This document shows, in pieces, positions 1 to 64,000 of a stretch of DNA of 64,000 nucleotides. Source of the stretch: Candidatus Magasanikbacteria bacterium UBA922 (lineage in GTDB: Bacteria; Patescibacteriota; Patescibacteriia; Magasanikbacterales; UBA922); the NCBI GenBank assembly GCA_002293825.1, contig DBDW01000009.1:26170-90169 (forward strand). The letters are read 5' to 3'. The position numbers and the translations under genes are program-made. The notes under the pieces were generated by a model. The model searched no databases. It was not told the origin of the DNA and worked only from the letters and a program-made list of their open reading frames with translations. Within the stretch, counting starts at the first letter, position 1; every line of letters starts with the position of its first letter.

Positions 1-780
1 CGGCTGATCAAAAATTTCTTTAATCATAAAATGTGGATACCCTTGGGTCTGCGCCTCTGCCTCGCTCCACTCGATGGTCGTCACTTCTTTTTCTACATGC
101 GTATGAGTCTTTGAAAAAGTCTCAAATGAATCTCTAGAAATTACCGCTACTTCCCCATCATCGAGAAACACCATATCAGAAGTATAAGGCAATAATGGCG
201 TCGCATCACTCGCAACAAAATATTCTCCTTTTCCCACCCCAATTACCAACGGACTTCCCATACGTGCGGCGACAATCATATCAGGATGATCAGCATGAAC
301 CACAACAAGACCATACGTTCCTCGTACACGCATGAGTGCAGCCTCAACAGATGAAACAAGGTTTCCAGAATAGAGAGACCCAATCAGATGAGCCAATACT
401 TCAGTATCAGTTTCAGAAACAAACGTAAATCCTTTTTTCTCAAGCTCATCTTTAAGCTCTCTATAATTCTCAATAATTCCATTATGACAGATAGCCAATT
501 TTCCATCGAGAGAAACATGCGGATGCGCATTTTCTTCCGTCACTCCTCCATGCGTCGCCCATCTCGTATGCGCAATCCCAACAGTTCCACTTAAATCAAA
601 ATCTTTCACTTTTTCAGCAAGTGTATCAATCTTACCAACCGACCGCACTCTTTGTATTTTTTGATCATTGATAATTGCAATTCCAGCACTATCATACCCA
701 CGATATTCAAGACGACGTAATCCTTGAATAAGGACGGGTAGTGTATCCTTTTTTCCGATGTATCCAATTATTCCGCACAT
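1..780 (-). CDS. glmS: Glutamine--fructose-6-phosphate aminotransferase, N-terminal part. The gene runs off the window start.
   Basis: Reverse-complement translation from ATG at 778-780 gives MCGIIGYIGKKD..GIAHTRWATHG..., the class II glutaminase domain with an N-terminal Cys nucleophile typical of GlmS. No stop codon before the window edge. Confidence 0.8.
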   Translation of the reverse strand, partial: MCGIIGYIGKKDTLPVLIQGLRRLEYRGYDSAGIAIINDQKIQRVRSVGKIDTLAEKVKDFDLSGTVGIAHTRWATHGGVTEENAHPHVSLDGKLAICHNGIIENYRELKDELEKKGFTFVSETDTEVLAHLIGSLYSGNLVSSVEAALMRVRGTYGLVVVHADHPDMIVAARMGSPLVIGVGKGEYFVASDATPLLPYTSDMVFLDDGEVAVISRDSFETFSKTHTHVEKEVTTIEWSEAEAQTQGYPHFMIKEIFDQP

Positions 781-9711: not shown

Positions 9712-9822
9712 ATCTAGGCGCCGACCTACTCTCGCCTTGCGACTACCATTGGCGCTGAAGGGCTTAACTGCCGTGTTCGGGATGGGAACGGGTGGACCCC
9801 CTTCGCAAAAAGCACCTAGATT
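9712..9822 (-). rRNA. rrf: 5S ribosomal RNA
   Basis: The reverse complement contains CCCGAACACGGCAGTTAAGCCC and GGTAGTCGCAAGGCGAGAGTAGG 5S core motifs. A flanking inverted repeat (ctgagtacagaatctaggcg / cacctagattctatactcag) forms a processing stem. Confidence 0.85.
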
Positions 9823-9896
9823 CTATACTCAGTTGAATTGAAAAAGTAACAAGCTGTGTAGTTAACAGTCTTCGAAACACAACTCTGTGTTTCTGT

Positions 9897-13232
<3,336 letters not shown>

Positions 13233-57299: not shown

Positions 57300-57866
57300 T
57301 TACTCGACTACACGTCCACCGTATTCTCCAGTTTCAGTATTGACCGTGATTTCCTCACCCTCTTTGATAAAGATTGGTGCTTGAATTTTCAATCCATTAT
57401 CTAGTTCAATCTCTTTAGTCACATTACCGCTAGTACTATCACCCTTTACTGCTGGAGGTGCTGTTTTTACAGTATACGTTACTTTCTTTGGAAGCTGAAT
57501 CGCTACCACATTTCCCTCATGAAGCGAAGCTACTACCTCAAGCCCTTCCTTGAGATAGGGGGCATCCTCACCGACAACAGAAGCAGAGACATCAAGAGTT
57601 TCGTATGATTCTTTATTCATAAAAGAATAAAAATCTCCATTCTGGTATAAATACTGAAGATTTTCATGAAACACATCGACAATATCTACACTTTCTCCAC
57701 TTTTAAAAGTCATTTCAGTGCCTTTTGCCCCATCAATTGATTTAAGCTTGGTTTTGGTAAATGCCTGTCCTTTTCCAGGATTTACAAACTGAAACGTAGT
57801 CACGACATACAATGTACCGTTATGGCGAATGACGGCACCTTTCTTGATTTCTGAAGTATCTGCCAT
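57300..57866 (-). CDS. efp: Elongation factor P
   Basis: KGQAFTKTKLKS contains the conserved modified Lys loop. Three OB-fold domains. Confidence 0.85.
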   Translation of the reverse strand: MADTSEIKKGAVIRHNGTLYVVTTFQFVNPGKGQAFTKTKLKSIDGAKGTEMTFKSGESVDIVDVFHENLQYLYQNGDFYSFMNKESYETLDVSASVVGEDAPYLKEGLEVVASLHEGNVVAIQLPKKVTYTVKTAPPAVKGDSTSGNVTKEIELDNGLKIQAPIFIKEGEEITVNTETGEYGGRVVE

Positions 57867-57887
57867 AAAAAATAATAAAATAAATAA

Positions 57888-58925
57888 CTAATCACTATAC
57901 ATTTTTCGCATCGGCAATACTAACACGTCCTCGATATTTTTGCAACCAGTCAAGCTCATCACCAATCGATCTATTCCCAAAGAAATTCCAGCTGAATTCG
58001 GCAGGTTTCGTACTGCCTCGAGAAATTCGTGATCGATCGGATATATTTTTTTTCCATACATACGTCGCTCACTCTGTTCAAAAATAAATCGACGCTCCTG
58101 CTCATCAGCATCAGTCAATTCTTCAAAACCATTAGTCAATTCTACCCCATCAATATACGCCTCAACCCGTCGTGCATACCGGCCATCAGAAGTGAGAAGG
58201 GATAAAGACGCCATTGCACTCGGATACTCATAAATCATCACCAACCCCATAGAAGATATCACGGGCTCAATTTCACTCAAAAAAATACGATAAAAAACCT
58301 CCTCATACTGCTCAGCATCTGAAACCACAAATCCTTTCTCACGTACACATGCAATCAAATCCTGAGTAGTAAGCGCAGTATCAAGATCAATCGCAAGAAT
58401 ATCAAGCCACAATTGTCGCATACTAATACGCTTCCAGGACTCCGTGAGAAATCGATCTGTATACACGCGAAATTCTGGATATCGATCGCTCACACGAGTA
58501 GCAACAAAACGACATAATTGTTCGGTATCATCCATAATATCCTCAAGCGAAGATCCGACACGATACCACTCGGCCATGGTAAATTCAGGATGGTGTGTAT
58601 GGCTCATGCTCTCATGATTACGAAAAACTTTTCCCAGATAAAAAATTCGATCAAACCCAGAAGCAAGCATTTTCTTCATCGTATATTCAGGTGACGTGTG
58701 CAACACACCAGGAAACACACGTGCACGATCATCGCGCACCGCAAGTTCCATAACCTCAATATTGGGTTCCTGCCCAGGAGAAGCTACGATATGGGGTGAT
58801 TCAATTTCCATCAATCCTTGGGTCCAAAAATATTCTCGAACTGCACGAAGAATTTCAAAACGAGCCTCAAGAGTTGATCGATGAGACGTAATGTGATGAA
58901 GATGAATACCAAGACTATGTTTCAT
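57888..58925 (-). CDS. epmA: EF-P--(R)-beta-lysine ligase (PoxA/GenX, class II LysRS paralog)
   Basis: Class II aaRS motifs 1-3 without an anticodon-binding domain. Adjacent to efp. Confidence 0.7.
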   Translation of the reverse strand: MKHSLGIHLHHITSHRSTLEARFEILRAVREYFWTQGLMEIESPHIVASPGQEPNIEVMELAVRDDRARVFPGVLHTSPEYTMKKMLASGFDRIFYLGKVFRNHESMSHTHHPEFTMAEWYRVGSSLEDIMDDTEQLCRFVATRVSDRYPEFRVYTDRFLTESWKRISMRQLWLDILAIDLDTALTTQDLIACVREKGFVVSDAEQYEEVFYRIFLSEIEPVISSMGLVMIYEYPSAMASLSLLTSDGRYARRVEAYIDGVELTNGFEELTDADEQERRFIFEQSERRMYGKKIYPIDHEFLEAVRNLPNSAGISLGIDRLVMSLTGCKNIEDVLVLPMRKMYSD

Positions 58926-59043: not shown

Positions 59044-59115
59044 CACAAAACAAGCGGGTATCGTATAACGGCTATTATCTCAGTTTTCCAAACTGATGAC
59101 GCGGGTTCGACTCCC
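59044..59115 (+). tRNA. tRNA-Gly (anticodon UCC)
   Basis: Hand fold: acceptor gcgggta/tacccgc, anticodon stem tcagt/actga with loop tttccaa, T-arm gcggg-ttcgact-cccgc. Confidence 0.75.
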
Positions 59116-59325
59116 GCTACCCGCTCAGGATCTTCATACAAGATCATTGAAATTTTCATTCTTCAGTACCTATCCTGACATGTCGAACAAGGGAAGGGTG
59201 AAACCGTCAGGTTTCACATGCTGAGGAAAGTATTTGAAAACCCGAAGGTTTTCAAAAGAAGAGCGAAGCGATGAGTGAGACTCCCGCTACCCGCTCAGGA
59301 TCTTCATACAAGATCTACATGTTCC
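59099..59325 (+). repeat. 37-bp direct repeat: the tRNA-Gly(UCC) 3' end plus 22 nt of downstream flank, duplicated 190 bp downstream
   Basis: gactcccgctacccgctcaggatcttcatacaagatc is present at 59099-59135 and again at 59289-59325. The spacer contains two perfect hairpins, gtgaaacc..ggtttcac and tttgaaaacc..ggttttcaaa. Confidence 0.7.
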
Positions 59326-59405
59326 AGCACTTCCTGATCACACATCGGAACCACATCAAAAAATGCTGGTAAAAATGAGATAAAGGACGTACAATATATA
59401 CACAT

Positions 59406-59479
59406 CGCGGGGTAGAGCAGCCAGGCAGCTCGTCGGGCCCATAACCCGAAGGTCGGGGGTTCAAATCCCTCCCCCGCAA
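59406..59479 (+). tRNA. Initiator tRNA-fMet (anticodon CAU)
   Basis: Near-identical to E. coli tRNAfMet, with the C1xA72 mismatch and three G:C pairs closing the anticodon stem (tcggg/cccga). Confidence 0.85.
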
Positions 59480-59502
59480 CAAAGGATCTCACAATTTAGA
59501 AT

Positions 59503-59576
59503 GCGGTAGTAGCTCAGTTGGTTAGAGCGTCTCCTTGCCAAGGAGAAGGTCGCCAGTTCGAATCTGGTTTACCGCT
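59503..59576 (+). tRNA. tRNA-Gly (anticodon GCC)
   Basis: Hand fold: acceptor gcggtag/ttaccgc, anticodon stem tctcc/ggaga with loop ttgccaa, T-arm gccag-ttcgaat-ctggt. Confidence 0.8.
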
Positions 59577-59578
59577 CA

Positions 59579-59714: not shown

Positions 59715-61274
59715 TTACCGAAGCAAACGCCTTTTCAAAGAAAAATAGCGATACCACCCACCACACATTGCCACAAACAAGACAACGAATGAACCTCCCA
59801 CAAACAATGGACTTGAAATAAAATTCCAAACTTTCATAGTACGCGTAATCTGCATCTCACGCACCTCTACTTGATGGACCACAGATCGCGGACCAAGCTC
59901 ATCAAAAGCTCCCAGCACTTGCATCGACAATTCATACACACCTGTGGACAAAATAGGGTCACTTACAAACAAAAAGTTTCCCTCTGTATCAGTTTCAATA
60001 ACATATGTTTCTATTTTTCCACCAGGAGTCTTCAAAGAAACATGAATTTTTGCATTCGAATATGAAACCACCCCTCGTGCATACACATTTTCACCTACTA
60101 CAATAGGATACAATGTATTGAGAATGCGCGGAGTAAACAATGGCGGAACTACTATTGAAAAAATTTGTTCACGGAAATTCCCTGCTTTATCATACACAAC
60201 TACCCGAATTTTCTGCTGACCTAATATAGTATCAGGCACAGTCAAAGAAGTTCCCAGAGCCCCTTCCCCCATACGCACCATGGAACCATCGTCAAAAAAG
60301 ATTTCATAAAAATTCACACCAGAAACACCATCAGTGGCCTGAAGAGAGATTAGCACACGCTCAGAATCTTTATCTTCTTGCAGAGAAAGGTTCTCAGGAA
60401 TACCTGTATCCACCTGTATCGCATAACTAGCTACAGGCGACCATACATTATTTTTTCGATATCTGATAGTAAAATACCAGACACCGTCATCAGAAAGGAT
60501 TATTTCTTGTGAAGAATTTTTTACAGACACCTCAGTAGTAGGAATAAATCCCGGCTCTCTACTTACCCCAAACTGAAGATTTTGTAAATTTTGCAAAATG
60601 TTCCATTCCATTTTCACTTTTCTACTGTTATACCAAAAATTTTGATTCGAGTGTGTAGGAGAAGAAAGAGATAGTGTGGAAAGCTGTTCAGGCACATTTT
60701 TATTAATCTCAGTCGGCAGTGGTTTGGATACAGCGGGAATAGAAGGAAGTACTGCTTGTTCTGGCTTAGTCACTTCTTGAACATCAATCAAAATTGAGGC
60801 AGAACCAGCCCCTTGAAAAATATTTGTACCAAGGCCATCATTTTCTCGTATTGAGGCACCCGAGATTGCAAATGAAGCAGTGCCTGTTTTTTTTGTCTTA
60901 AAAGTGACAGAAAAAATCTCACCAACACCACTAAAACCCGGATTAACAACTCCACCATTAAAAGATATAAGGCCCGAAGCGTTTGAAAAATTTGGGCTCT
61001 CTACCCACAATGAAAAAATTGATTTCCCAGTGTTCAACGATGTTACCTCAACCAAATCTGCAGGAAAGGTGATCACAGCTTCAGCGTTATTAATAAATTT
61101 TTCTTTCGTATTTATCACAACACGAAGCGTAAAAGAATCCCCCTGAGTTACACGCGTAGCAGAAACAGTCGCCCCCATAGTCGCAGCAAAAACACGTTCA
61201 GTAAAATAACCAAAAAACAAAAGAAAAAATCCTAGAAAAAATAAATAAAAAACACGCGAATAAACCTGTTTCAT
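59715..61274 (-). CDS. Cell-surface protein with an N-terminal cohesin-like domain, Ig-like middle region and a C-terminal TM anchor
   Basis: Signal/TM at the N-terminus. The cohesin-like beta-sandwich stretch is ...FTLRVVINTKEKFINNAEAVITFPADLVEV.... C-terminal hydrophobic anchor plus basic tail. Shares a YDKAGN motif with the adjacent paralog. Confidence 0.5.
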   Translation of the reverse strand: MKQVYSRVFYLFFLGFFLLFFGYFTERVFAATMGATVSATRVTQGDSFTLRVVINTKEKFINNAEAVITFPADLVEVTSLNTGKSIFSLWVESPNFSNASGLISFNGGVVNPGFSGVGEIFSVTFKTKKTGTASFAISGASIRENDGLGTNIFQGAGSASILIDVQEVTKPEQAVLPSIPAVSKPLPTEINKNVPEQLSTLSLSSPTHSNQNFWYNSRKVKMEWNILQNLQNLQFGVSREPGFIPTTEVSVKNSSQEIILSDDGVWYFTIRYRKNNVWSPVASYAIQVDTGIPENLSLQEDKDSERVLISLQATDGVSGVNFYEIFFDDGSMVRMGEGALGTSLTVPDTILGQQKIRVVVYDKAGNFREQIFSIVVPPLFTPRILNTLYPIVVGENVYARGVVSYSNAKIHVSLKTPGGKIETYVIETDTEGNFLFVSDPILSTGVYELSMQVLGAFDELGPRSVVHQVEVREMQITRTMKVWNFISSPLFVGGSFVVLFVAMCGGWYRYFSLKRRLLR

Positions 61275-62194
61275 GCAAGTGTTTTAGAACGCATATTTCG
61301 TCTTTTTTTCACAAAGACAAAACTTATTAGAAAAACAAGTATCAAAACAGCGCCCAATACAAACCAAGGCATGTTCCCATCAGATATCTCACGAGGCACA
61401 AATTCAACAACTCGACGATTTCCTGCTTTATCAAAAGCAACAATCTCAACACGAGAGGTTCCATCCTGATTCTGAAGCACATATTCAGATCCAGATCGCA
61501 CTGACACAAAACCATCTTCAGTTATCTGAAGATAATCAATACCAGATTCTTCGTCACGCACCTCAATAGACAAAAATAATTGCCCACCAAAAAGACTAGG
61601 ATCGCTTCCTAGAGTTGCCTGAAGTACTGAAGGAGGAGTATTATCACTCGCAATCATCTCTCGAAGCATATCTTTACGCTCTCCATCTTTTTCTACAGAA
61701 ACAATATCCAATACCAAAGGAGTAAAATCTACTGCTTGTACAGTGCCGGCACCATTATGTAAATATGCAATCAAATCAACCGCACTAATCTCTAAACGCC
61801 CTTCTTTCTGACCTTCGAGCGCCAACGTAAAGACTTGGGCACCATCACTCTTAACACCTCCTGGCTCACCCGCTACAAAGGAAATAGAATGATCCTGTGA
61901 AGACCATGATGGTTTTCGAGACCACAAAGAAAATTGGCTCCCTCCGACACTAATTTCTCTCACTCGCACACTCTCAAAATCACCATTAAAACGAAGAGAT
62001 CCTTCGAGAACATTTATTTCTGCACCTTGTGTATTTATTCGAACAGTTACAAGCACGGTATCTCCAATCTGGAAGACTGACTCATCTACACCTACCTGCA
62101 ATAGCGCTCCATATGCCGGCGTACCTGAAAAAATAAACACTATAAATAATGCACAAACACACAAACACTTTTTTATCAAAAAGGAAGTAAACAT
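61271..62194 (-). CDS. Cohesin-like domain surface protein with a C-terminal TM anchor (paralog of the downstream gene)
   Basis: N-terminal signal, then LLQVGVDESVFQIGDTVLVTVRINTQGAEINVLEGSLRFNGDFESV, which is cohesin-like. C-terminal TM plus KKRRN. Overlaps the next gene by 4 nt (operon). Confidence 0.5.
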   Translation of the reverse strand: MFTSFLIKKCLCVCALFIVFIFSGTPAYGALLQVGVDESVFQIGDTVLVTVRINTQGAEINVLEGSLRFNGDFESVRVREISVGGSQFSLWSRKPSWSSQDHSISFVAGEPGGVKSDGAQVFTLALEGQKEGRLEISAVDLIAYLHNGAGTVQAVDFTPLVLDIVSVEKDGERKDMLREMIASDNTPPSVLQATLGSDPSLFGGQLFLSIEVRDEESGIDYLQITEDGFVSVRSGSEYVLQNQDGTSRVEIVAFDKAGNRRVVEFVPREISDGNMPWFVLGAVLILVFLISFVFVKKRRNMRSKTLA

Positions 62195-62203
62195 ACAGAA
62201 AAA

Positions 62204-64000
62204 TTATTTTTTGGCATCCCATTCATACATCAAAATTGAAAAATCAACAGAATCTACACGACCATCAGCATTGATATCTACATACAAATTACGGAACGGT
62301 GGTGATGTCCTCCAAAAAGCAAGTAAGATAGAAAAATCAACTGAATTTACTTTTGTATCACGGTTAAAATCAGCTCGCTTATATGTAACATTGGTACTGG
62401 TATTTGTCTGAATCAATGGTGGAACAAATCCGGCTCCACCACCTCCACCACCCGACGGAGGCGTGGGAGGAGTCGTACCAGTAGCCGCAAATGTTCGCGA
62501 AGCACTGGATGATTCATCGCCAAAGTACACCACTAATTTAAAAAAATAATTACCTGCCTGAGGCACAGTAGCGCTTAAAACAGTATTAAAATCTTCACCA
62601 GGATTAATAAATTTTGCCGCAGAAGCATAATATACATCATTATTTCCACCACACGCATTTTCAACACTGGTCACCACGCACCATTCGTACTGATACTCAT
62701 ATCCACTCAGACCTTCATTAGTAATCGTGACATTTGCTGCAATTGTAGGAATTGTGGTATCAGAAACCGTATTAATCAATACCTGAGCAGGAGAAGACCC
62801 TACTGCCCAATAATCATTGGTTTGCAATGTTTTACCTACTTCTACCACAGAAGATATCACTGACTCCCAAAGACCGCCCTCAGCTCCATTTGGAACAGAA
62901 TAGGTGTATTCATACACTCCTGTACTCACAGGTGTCATTGCAACTCCCGAAACAACAGTGTTTCGAGTTGCATCATAAATAGTAATTGTTGGTGCGGTCA
63001 CCGGATTTGTTGGCTGTGTTTCTTTATTAGAAATAAATATTTTAGCTCGATATGTTTTTCCAGCAGCAATTGAATCCACGTCTGACATTCGAACCGTCCA
63101 CAGTGCATCTTGAGTAACAAGAGATGCTCGTGTGGAAAGCATTACATCCACATTATCCACCAATTGCTTTCCAATCGAACCAACAGTGGTCAAACTAGAA
63201 GACAATACATTCCACACATCAGCAGCAGTGATGTCATTACCATAATTGGTGAGGGTGCGCGCAGCATTACTCCAGACTGCAGCAGAAATTGTAGAAGTTG
63301 AGTAATCAGTGAGTGAACGCGTCGCCGCACTCCACACATCAGCAGCAGTGAGATTACTCGTACCACGAGTAGAGACCTGTGCATCGAGATTGTCAACAAT
63401 CAATTTTCCAATACTCCCAAATGAGGTCAGCGTATCAACACCTACTGACCATAAATCCTGAATAGAAGAACTTGTAAACTCAACGGTCGTTGAAACGGTT
63501 CTACCCGCATAGCTCCACACATCCGCAGCACTAATATTATTGAGTGCATTAATGAGTGCTCGATTTGCAAGTATTTCATCTAAAATTCGAGTGGTTGAAA
63601 CCGTCGTATTATCCGCCAACTGTTTTCCAATCGATCCAACACTAGTCAAACTAGAAGACAATACATTCCACACATCTGCTGCGGTGATGTCATTGCCATA
63701 GTTGGTGAGGGTGCGCGCAGCGTTACTCCAGACTGCAGCAGAAATTGTAGAAGTTGAGTAATCAGTGAGTGAACGCGTGGGAGCACTCCACACATCAGCA
63801 GCAGTGAGATTACTCGTACCACGAGTAGAAATTTGAATATCCACATTCTCTCCCAACTGTTTTCCAATTGATCCAACAGTAGTCAAGGCACCTGTAGGTA
63901 CAGACCAAATTGCAGACGCAATACTGGTTGTCGAATAATCCGTGAGAGATCGTGTGCCTGCCTGCCACACATCAGCAGCAGTGAGATTACTCGTACCACG
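62204..64000 (-). CDS. Large tandem-repeat protein with a C-terminal type-I dockerin module. Its N-terminus lies beyond the window end.
   Basis: The C-terminus has two dockerin Ca-binding segments, DFNRDTKVNSVDFSILLAFW and DINADGRVDSVDFSILMYEW, preceded by a TPPTPPSGGGGGG linker. Upstream there are three or more copies of a roughly 152-aa repeat (TAADVW..TRSLTDYS..). Confidence 0.6.
   Translation of the reverse strand, partial: RGTSNLTAADVWQAGTRSLTDYSTTSIASAIWSVPTGALTTVGSIGKQLGENVDIQISTRGTSNLTAADVWSAPTRSLTDYSTSTISAAVWSNAARTLTNYGNDITAADVWNVLSSSLTSVGSIGKQLADNTTVSTTRILDEILANRALINALNNISAADVWSYAGRTVSTTVEFTSSSIQDLWSVGVDTLTSFGSIGKLIVDNLDAQVSTRGTSNLTAADVWSAATRSLTDYSTSTISAAVWSNAARTLTNYGNDITAADVWNVLSSSLTTVGSIGKQLVDNVDVMLSTRASLVTQDALWTVRMSDVDSIAAGKTYRAKIFISNKETQPTNPVTAPTITIYDATRNTVVSGVAMTPVSTGVYEYTYSVPNGAEGGLWESVISSVVEVGKTLQTNDYWAVGSSPAQVLINTVSDTTIPTIAANVTITNEGLSGYEYQYEWCVVTSVENACGGNNDVYYASAAKFINPGEDFNTVLSATVPQAGNYFFKLVVYFGDESSSASRTFAATGTTPPTPPSGGGGGGAGFVPPLIQTNTSTNVTYKRADFNRDTKVNSVDFSILLAFWRTSPPFRNLYVDINADGRVDSVDFSILMYEWDAKK
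63183..64000. repeat. Tandem 456-bp coding repeats (about 95% identical cores) inside the dockerin-protein gene
   Basis: The roughly 200-bp core beginning at 63183 recurs beginning at 63639. A third partial copy lies near 63940-64000. Confidence 0.7.

Follow-up and report, generated by a model that had tools for sequence, protein, structure and literature searches.

The dockerin gene and its two neighbours

The stretch of DNA analysed here (64,000 nucleotides (nt), hereafter the window) is part of contig DBDW01000009.1 (positions 26,170 to 90,169) of Candidatus Magasanikbacteria bacterium UBA922, a member of the Patescibacteria or candidate phyla radiation (CPR). Near its right-hand end, the window carries three genes that run in the same direction on the minus strand (Table 1). 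The first one, g1, encodes a repeat protein that ends in a dockerin. It is followed by g2 and g3, which encode a short and a long membrane-anchored protein, each with a module predicted to adopt the cohesin fold. The g1 stop codon is separated from the g2 start codon by 9 nt, and the g2 stop codon overlaps the g3 start codon by 4 nt (ATGA). An initial annotation made from the DNA letters had already listed three minus-strand genes, the last two overlapping by 4 nt, and both the coordinates and the overlap could be verified. Only the last 598 codons of g1 and its stop codon lie inside the window. An identical contig from another sample (L001; comparison loci carry L numbers throughout) contains the complete gene (L001:6444-9071), which codes for 875 amino acids (aa).

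Table 1. Features of the g1-g2-g3 operon (positions in the window).
Feature	Position	Strand	Basis
g1, dockerin-tailed fibre gene, 3' part	62204 to beyond 64000	-	frame open to window edge, no upstream stop
g1 fibre repeat region, motifs AADVW..R(S/T)LT and L(T/S)(T/S)VGSIGKQL..NVD..(I/V)STR	63101-64000	-	direct repeats, motif list
g1 MG2-like beta-sandwich domain	62855-63064	-	Pfam MG2, sub-threshold
g1 pre-dockerin beta domain (ITNEG..YEYQYEWC..N.CGG..)	62429-62800	-	phmmer, alignment
g1 Pro/Thr/Gly-rich linker (TGTTPPTPPSGGGGGGAGF...)	62375-62428	-	translation
g1 dockerin, two F-hand Ca-binding loops and two SVDFSIL(L/M) helices	62228-62374	-	Pfam PF00404
g2, short membrane-anchored cohesin protein, 307 aa	61271-62194	-	open reading frame, AlphaFold model, ortholog family alignment
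g2 cohesin-fold module, residues 30-165 (predicted)	61700-62107	-	
g2 Ig-like stalk domain (D..SGIDY ... DKAGN), common to g3	61400-61630	-	aligns with g3 residues 294-376 (hhalign)
g2 C-terminal transmembrane helix, then basic tail KKRRNMRSKTLA	61301-61372	-	hydrophobic window 270-298; model helix 275-306
g3, long membrane-anchored cohesin protein, 519 aa	59715-61274	-	open reading frame, AlphaFold model, 328 homologs
g3 cohesin-fold module, residues 31-164 (predicted)	60783-61184	-	
g3 stalk: disordered linker (~165-204) and three beta-sandwich domains (205-288, 294-376, 383-472)	59859-60782	-	AlphaFold
g3 C-terminal transmembrane helix, then tail ...YFSLKRRLLR	59751-59819	-	hydrophobic window 482-508; model helix 489-518
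Hairpin, 10 bp, G+C-containing, 24 nt past the g3 stop codon	59668-59691	.	terminator-like site

Conservation of the three-gene cassette

A scan seeded with g3 and restricted to one genome per species yielded 377 species with a g3 relative, and 79 loci were kept. To these loci, hidden Markov models (HMMs) built from our own alignments were applied. In 73 of the 79 loci, g2 is located immediately upstream of g3. A dockerin-ending open reading frame (ORF) precedes g2 in 66 of the 69 loci that comprise enough upstream sequence, and the order is dockerin protein, g2, g3. Since the trio is present in 66 of 69 informative loci of different species, this arrangement is not due to chance. The dockerin is separated from the C-terminus by 0-9 residues, except for two cases with 27 residues. 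The four first loci, which encode distant g3 homologs (31-45% identity), have a g2-like gene directly upstream, preceded by a gene for a protein that ends in a Dockerin_1 domain above the Pfam cut-off. The reciprocal metagenome scan, seeded on the pre-dockerin domain and the dockerin of g1, returned 80 loci. Here, the dockerin gene is followed by g2 in 70 of 78 loci and by g3 in 55 of 59 loci. Whichever end is used as the seed, the neighbourhood of dockerin gene and cohesin anchors, to which the initial annotation had drawn attention, is found conserved among Patescibacteria. Rather than being peculiar to one genome, the locus is a cassette conserved throughout the phylum.

The 79 loci are labelled Magasanikiibacteriota, Paceibacteria, Nomurabacteria, Falkowbacteria, Komeilibacteria, Taylorbacteria, Wolfebacteria, Adlerbacteria, Doudnabacteria and 'Patescibacteria group', or have generic names from automated submissions of metagenome-assembled genomes (MAGs). 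The nearest ortholog locus belongs to a Candidatus Magasanikiibacteriota MAG and has the same downstream synteny as the window, in agreement with the CPR-like genome that had been assumed from the sequence. A Patescibacteria-type cassette is also found in MAGs labelled 'uncultured Gammaproteobacteria' or 'Saccharibacteria' (L010, L028, L032, L038, L049, L052, L061, L075) and in many records labelled 'uncultured Candidatus Saccharibacteria'. The labels of these automated submissions are probably unreliable.

The fibre protein g1

Pfam Dockerin_1 (PF00404) matches the C-terminus of the g1 fragment in the window with 41.7 bits (cut-off 22.9, E=1.3e-10) and the full-length protein with 39.5 bits. 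The dockerin behind a Pro/Thr/Gly linker, as originally annotated, is thus confirmed. The linker TTPPTPPSGGGGGG is followed by the F-hand loops DFNRDTKVNSVD and DINADGRVDSVD, each of which precedes a helix FSIL(L/M). Both F-hand segments carry Asp or Asn at the Ca-ligand positions 1, 3, 5, 9 and 12. The dockerin of Clostridium thermocellum CelS (1daq/2mte) is a weak direct match. Orthologous dockerins in L005-L008 score 28.5-36.6 bits with Dockerin_1. In an alignment from 72 loci, the Ca-loop positions are 84-100% conserved and the recognition helices nearly invariant across the phylum. About 40% of the aligned dockerins contain Cys before the first and the second Ca loop (consensus positions 4, 11 and 37), suggesting a disulfide clasp. 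The dockerin of the window has Tyr at both Cys positions.

Full-length g1 begins with a signal-like peptide (MKKVLSKKEVIRISFFAFFLSFFVISSVFA in L001) and an N-terminal beta domain. The repeats come next, then an MG2-like domain and a conserved beta domain, and the linker leads to the dockerin. With Pfam MG2 (cut-off 32.8), neither the window fragment (20.3 bits) nor the full protein (30.5 bits) reaches the threshold, and the ortholog in L006 exceeds it with 36.5 bits. A phmmer search with the g1 body retrieved 60 of the 71 other dockerin proteins of the cassette; the part they have in common corresponds to residues ~678-801 of the full-length protein. The pre-dockerin beta domain is the only body module common to all cassette dockerin proteins. 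The MG2-like and the N-terminal domains are common to many of them, and the repeat region differs. Orthologs of g1 have a poly-Gly linker. In Pfam scans of the window fragment and of the full-length protein, no catalytic domain or carbohydrate-binding module (CBM) was detected in the g1 cargo.

The repeats themselves were found by a direct-repeat search, which revealed 456-nt (152-aa) copies with 84% identity. At the protein level, they comprise ~15 short units of the type AADVW..R(S/T)LT, and the designation of g1 as a long tandem-repeat protein can be retained. Tandem Repeats Finder did not detect anything in g1 DNA because the copies are long-period and diverged. In L002 (L002:555-3638), g3 is identical to that in L001, yet g1 comprises 1027 aa with one additional 152-aa block. 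This shows that the g1 repeat number is polymorphic between strains. Among the cassettes, the shortest complete cargo ORF codes for 250 aa and the longest for 1513 aa, and ORFs truncated at a locus edge reach more than 2000 aa. In the smallest cargo (~250 aa), the dockerin is accompanied by no more than a signal peptide and one conserved beta domain.

The paralogous anchors g2 and g3

By BLASTP, g2 and g3 match each other with E=4e-9, and the profiles of the two families align in hhalign with a probability of 99.95 (E=1.3e-37). To judge from these alignments, g2 and g3 are distant paralogs, as had been proposed. Both contain two hydrophobic helices, one at the N-terminus and one near the C-terminus, the latter preceding a basic tail (KKRRNMRSK in g2, KRRLLR in g3). 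These elements were located by hydrophobic windows and AlphaFold helices, and the previously annotated topology holds. The AlphaFold model of g2 has a pLDDT of 92.8, that of g3, built on a 54-member alignment, a mean pLDDT of 88.8. According to its model, g3 starts with a helix, which is followed by the beta domain of residues 31-164, a disordered linker, three further beta domains and a helix at the C-terminus.

In the models, the N-terminal modules of g2 and g3 form a nine-stranded flattened beta-sandwich that can be superimposed on solved cohesins. Pfam Cohesin matches 21 of 54 g3 orthologs at E≤0.01 (best E=1.1e-8), and about a fifth of the 328 g3 homologs have a precomputed Cohesin hit. 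Searches with the g2 and g3 sequences against PDB sequences found no cohesin, and the g3 family profile retrieved only the Ig repeats of the Lap adhesin (6xi3) from the PDB. The assignment of both modules as cohesins draws on the predicted fold and on the orthologs. The g2 stalk matches weakly the NCBIfam model of an OmpL47-type barrel (24.2 bits) and DUF7743, and Big_13 matches 53 of 54 g3 orthologs. No LPXTG motif is present in the tails of g2 or g3 (g2: TIGR01167 14.8, cut-off 15.9; PF00746 12.7, cut-off 20), and the SLH family is absent among the Pfam hits of g2, g3 and their orthologs.

With a mean pairwise identity of 67% and 51%, respectively, the dockerin core and the g3 cohesin are better conserved than the other modules; for the g3 stalk domains, the value is 26-38%. 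Invariant and near-invariant residues of the g3 family (I61-E65, F87-W90, F96-N98, G101-G108 and R143-T150) are located in or beside the model strands 3, 5, 6 and 8. In type I complexes such as 1ohz, it is the 8-3-6-5 sheet of the cohesin that holds the dockerin. In two species, a second g3-like gene follows g3 (L039:5887-9319 and L079:5983-9768), a tandem duplication of the long anchor.

Upstream Tat genes and flanking genes

Genes for TatC and TatA of the twin-arginine translocation system (one or two copies) lie before the trio, with the same orientation, in L001 and in at least 14 further species. Still further upstream are the genes for three conserved proteins, which in L001 comprise 799, 205 and 62 aa. 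The string of L001 (2253-6406, outside the window) has the order 799-aa, 205-aa and 62-aa protein, TatC, TatA, g1. The same string was found in L007, L015, L020, L023, L031, L042, L046, L058, L076, L079, L083 and L086. Tat genes are located within 1.5 kb upstream in at least 19 of the 34 loci that reach far enough. Searches of Pfam, NCBIfam, PHROGs, PDB sequences and GenBank phages yielded no match for the 799-, 205- and 62-aa proteins, all of which lack a signal peptide. The largest of them is rich in Ser, Thr and Gly and contains an internal duplication.

A 233-aa protein with a twin-arginine signal (TIGR01409, 20.8 bits, cut-off 16.7) is encoded at L001:1541-2242 and near the cassette in 9 loci. 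Possibly it is a client of the neighbouring TatAC. Where the dockerin gene is usually located, L075 encodes a homolog of this 233-aa protein. Export of g1, g2 and g3 themselves by Tat was considered and rejected, as their N-termini do not contain a twin-arginine motif.

Downstream, the hairpin past the g3 stop codon (Table 1) is likely to be the end of the operon. It separates the latter from a convergent cluster of three tRNA genes (59054-59577, + strand). The GC content in the operon region is ~0.39-0.43. Neighbours of the cassette are housekeeping genes, among them EF-P, a class II tRNA-synthetase-like gene, RuvB, ribonucleotide reductase and TatAC. The statement that no glycoside hydrolases are encoded nearby and that the system is non-cellulosomal is borne out: neither a glycoside hydrolase nor a CBM was found in the cassette neighbourhood.

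Two observations concern more remote parts of the window. EF-P adjoins the class II tRNA-synthetase-like gene (345 aa, Pfam tRNA-synt_2; 57300-58925, minus strand), a pairing typical of the EF-P lysylation enzyme EpmA (PoxA/GenX). The same pair is located downstream of the cassette in the Magasanikiibacteriota locus L008. Furthermore, the 23S rRNA match (9891-13226, minus strand) spans 3336 nt compared with 2925 model positions, which corresponds to ~400 nt of insertions. These do not match any intron family at the Rfam threshold and do not contain an ORF of 150 aa or more. A 5S rRNA (9713-9819) follows the 23S rRNA.

Relation of the g1 repeats to phage tail fibres

Among 1.84 billion representative sequences, 727 are related to the g1 repeat region (E≤1e-3). 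Of the best 150, only 12 end in a dockerin of the cassette type. One repeat relative, P0212, is encoded directly after Baseplate_J and Mu_Gp48 genes, i.e. in the tail-fibre position of a contractile-tail gene cluster. It matches g1 over the shared motifs (BLASTP E=1e-24) and has at least 390 relatives in IMG/VR; g1 itself matches 13 of the 80 loci kept. Another repeat relative, P0275, matches a tail-fibre PHROG.

Proposed mechanism

Domain identities, topology elements, operon structure and conserved co-occurrence are observed. On this basis, we propose that the operon probably encodes a three-part non-cellulosomal cohesin-dockerin tether on the CPR cell surface that displays a variable fibre. 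The tight translational coupling by the 9-nt gap and the 4-nt overlap is counted in its favour, as is the precedent of an essential dockerin-domain envelope protein in a cultivated Patescibacterium (PMC10633639). According to this model, g1, g2 and g3 would be exported via their Sec-type N-terminal signal-like peptides, which may be cleaved. The C-terminal helix would hold g2 and g3 in the cytoplasmic membrane with the basic tail inside. Each of them would present one cohesin at its outer tip, at two different heights: The predicted g2 stalk is short with one Ig-like domain, the predicted g3 stalk is long with a flexible linker and three beta-sandwich domains. The released g1 would then be captured non-covalently and in a Ca-dependent manner by its C-terminal dockerin. 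The dockerin would plug into the g3 cohesin, probably the primary receptor, and possibly into the g2 cohesin. The order-keeping, near-obligate linkage of the genes and the conserved residues on strands 3, 5, 6 and 8 would fit an interaction in which the g3 cohesin may bind the dockerin via its 8-3-6-5 sheet. The two near-identical Ca-loop/helix halves of the dockerin could allow a dual binding mode or two partners. Displayed would be the conserved beta domain beside the dockerin, a distal tail-fibre-like repeat fibre of fast-changing number and the N-terminal beta domain as a cap. The most likely role of the system would be to present a variable fibre or adhesin that makes contact with a host, a partner cell or a surface.

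Several observations weigh against this model. Pfam Cohesin (PF00963) does not match g2 or g3 at E≤1, nor does it match any of 40 g2-family members. The mean pairwise identity of the g2 cohesin (36%) is lower than that of its own stalk domain (43%), and this module may have a different ligand. L011 and L075 encode g2 and g3 only, and L049, L052 and L087 encode g3 alone. Covariation between dockerin and cohesin columns (mutual information with average product correction, 106 trios), a signal that is probably dominated by phylogeny, yielded top z values of 6.2-6.3 for the cohesins versus 6.65-6.94 for the control stalk domains. Since the g3 cohesin is better conserved than the g2 cohesin (51% vs 36%), the two anchors are probably not equivalent; g3 would then probably be the main receptor and g2 a diverged partner. 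As to the initial annotation, it had called the modules cohesin-like and had been prepared to abandon this view if significant cohesin or dockerin HMM hits were missing. The dockerin hit is significant. A cohesin hit is missing for g2 and g3 themselves, and we give more weight to the predicted fold and the 21 matching g3 orthologs.

Alternative interpretations

If one follows the missing Pfam match and a covariation no higher than that of the control domains, the cohesin-fold modules might be generic beta-sandwich surface domains, the genes being linked by shared export or regulation and the dockerin binding, for instance, a host-cell glycan or protein. A glycan target on the host has also been speculated on for a Patescibacterial dockerin protein (PMC10633639). 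We regard this explanation as quite improbable: A fifth to two fifths of the g3 orthologs do match Pfam Cohesin, the conserved g3 residues cluster on the canonical binding sheet, and a near-obligate, order-preserving linkage to the dockerin is hard to explain without direct partnership. Alternatively, g2 and g3 could be general docking sites for several dockerin proteins encoded elsewhere, with g1 merely an adjacent client. In cellulosomal organisms, one cohesin type accepts many dockerins. The nearly invariant recognition helices would permit binding of any protein with such a dockerin, and some loci contain g3 without an adjacent dockerin gene. However, the 64-kb window encodes only one dockerin and two cohesins. 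Moreover, the dockerin-seeded search landed beside g2/g3 in 70 of 78 loci, so that free-standing genes look rare, with the reservation that this search also required the pre-dockerin domain. General docking sites are, in our estimation, rather unlikely.

A similarly small chance is given to the possibility that the tether exists as proposed, and its cargo is a structural envelope layer, i.e. an S-layer-like coat or spacer fibres, for which g2 and g3 set two lattice heights. The different stalk lengths of the two anchors would fit this, as would the minimal cargo of ~250 aa described above. A housekeeping neighbourhood and presence in at least 377 species-level genomes are expected of a core envelope component, too. 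By contrast, the strong variation of cargo length and repeat number among species and near-identical strains is more typical of exposed adhesins or receptor-binding fibres, the g1 repeats resemble tail-fibre repeats, and no lattice-forming domain was recognised. Finally, the tail fibre and its accessory proteins might belong to a prophage or some other mobile element, since the repeats are homologous to viral-contig proteins and to a protein encoded next to baseplate genes. This idea is close to refuted. There is no PHROG hit for g1, g2 or g3, the g1 repeats do not match GenBank phages, and the dockerin end of g1 does not have a relative in IMG/VR; on these grounds, a phage origin of the locus was rejected. 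In addition, no phage genes are present at the g1 locus, the housekeeping flanks keep a conserved order, and the cassette is vertically widespread. As judged from sequence comparisons, only the repeat type is common to g1 and phage fibres, and the locus is not a prophage.

Comparison with known cohesin-dockerin systems

The surface tether proposed here would work like the single-cohesin surface anchors of cellulosomal bacteria. The closest analogues are ScaE with CttA, and OlpA or OlpC. ScaE of Ruminococcus flavefaciens, a cell-wall-anchored single cohesin (structure 2zf9), reportedly binds the dockerin-bearing adhesin CttA encoded in the same sca gene cluster. ScaE is fixed covalently by sortase (LPXTG), whereas g2 and g3 have a C-terminal membrane helix and no LPXTG motif. 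R. flavefaciens has a cellulosome with multi-cohesin scaffoldins and many enzymes; the cassette comprises one dockerin, two paralogous anchors and no enzymes. OlpA, OlpC and SdbA of C. thermocellum combine a single cohesin with SLH repeats. In contrast, g2 and g3 lack an SLH domain and carry the cohesin at the N-terminus, at the far end of an Ig-like stalk that has a membrane helix. The cargo also differs: a repeat fibre in the case of g1, an enzyme or scaffoldin in the case of OlpA, OlpC and SdbA. With no multi-cohesin scaffoldin, no enzyme or CBM cargo and no SLH or LPXTG anchor in its sequences, the cassette is not a cellulosome.

In 2009, Peer et al. reportedly surveyed cohesins and dockerins outside cellulosomes in all three domains of life. 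Such modules, including those of Archaeoglobus fulgidus (cohesin structure 2xdh), are scattered and have no assigned role, whereas the cassette consists of three fixed genes across a bacterial radiation. The cohesin-dockerin (X82) pairs of Clostridium perfringens (2vo8, 2w1n, 2o4e) join secreted glycoside hydrolases or toxins; the cassette has no enzymes, and its cohesins are membrane-anchored. Two other cases come from obligately partner-associated microbes. ANME archaea have surface proteomes rich in cohesins and dockerins (PMC9012536). In the Saccharibacterium Southlakia epibionticum, the dockerin-domain envelope protein SEML1_0315 is essential and, according to the authors' gene table, does not have adjacent cohesin genes (PMC10633639). 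Their dockerin or cohesin modules have been proposed to act in cell-cell contact, in common with the role suggested for the cassette. A conserved operon of a dockerin and two cohesins is described in neither study (PMC9012536; PMC10633639). In the full-text literature, where most subscription journals lie outside coverage, no description of a dockerin and two-cohesin cassette in CPR was found.

Biological significance

In at least 14 species, the trio directly follows TatC, TatA and three conserved proteins without detectable homology elsewhere, and its fibre carries strain-variable repeats of the phage-tail-fibre type. For these reasons, it can be tentatively envisaged that the dockerin fibre and the two cohesin anchors are the visible end of a larger, conserved surface organelle specific for Patescibacteria, an idea we regard as speculative. 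If true, a large part of the CPR would use this organelle to attach to the host or to recognise it. Fibre length and tip would then be the variable specificity determinant and the cohesin-dockerin pair the universal plug.

CPR bacteria or Patescibacteria are mostly uncultured and tiny and are thought to be attached to other cells. How most of them attach is obscure, and much of their envelope proteome is unannotated. The cassette proteins, currently labelled 'hypothetical', are found together in hundreds of species. As a module, they would account for the attachment of a fast-evolving fibre to the cell. The strain-level differences in fibre length and the phage-fibre-like repeats suggest selection on partner recognition. 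Furthermore, the cassette supplies a cohesin family that is largely missed by the Pfam model. It would extend cohesin-dockerin biology to a conserved, membrane-anchored single-client system unconnected to polysaccharide degradation.

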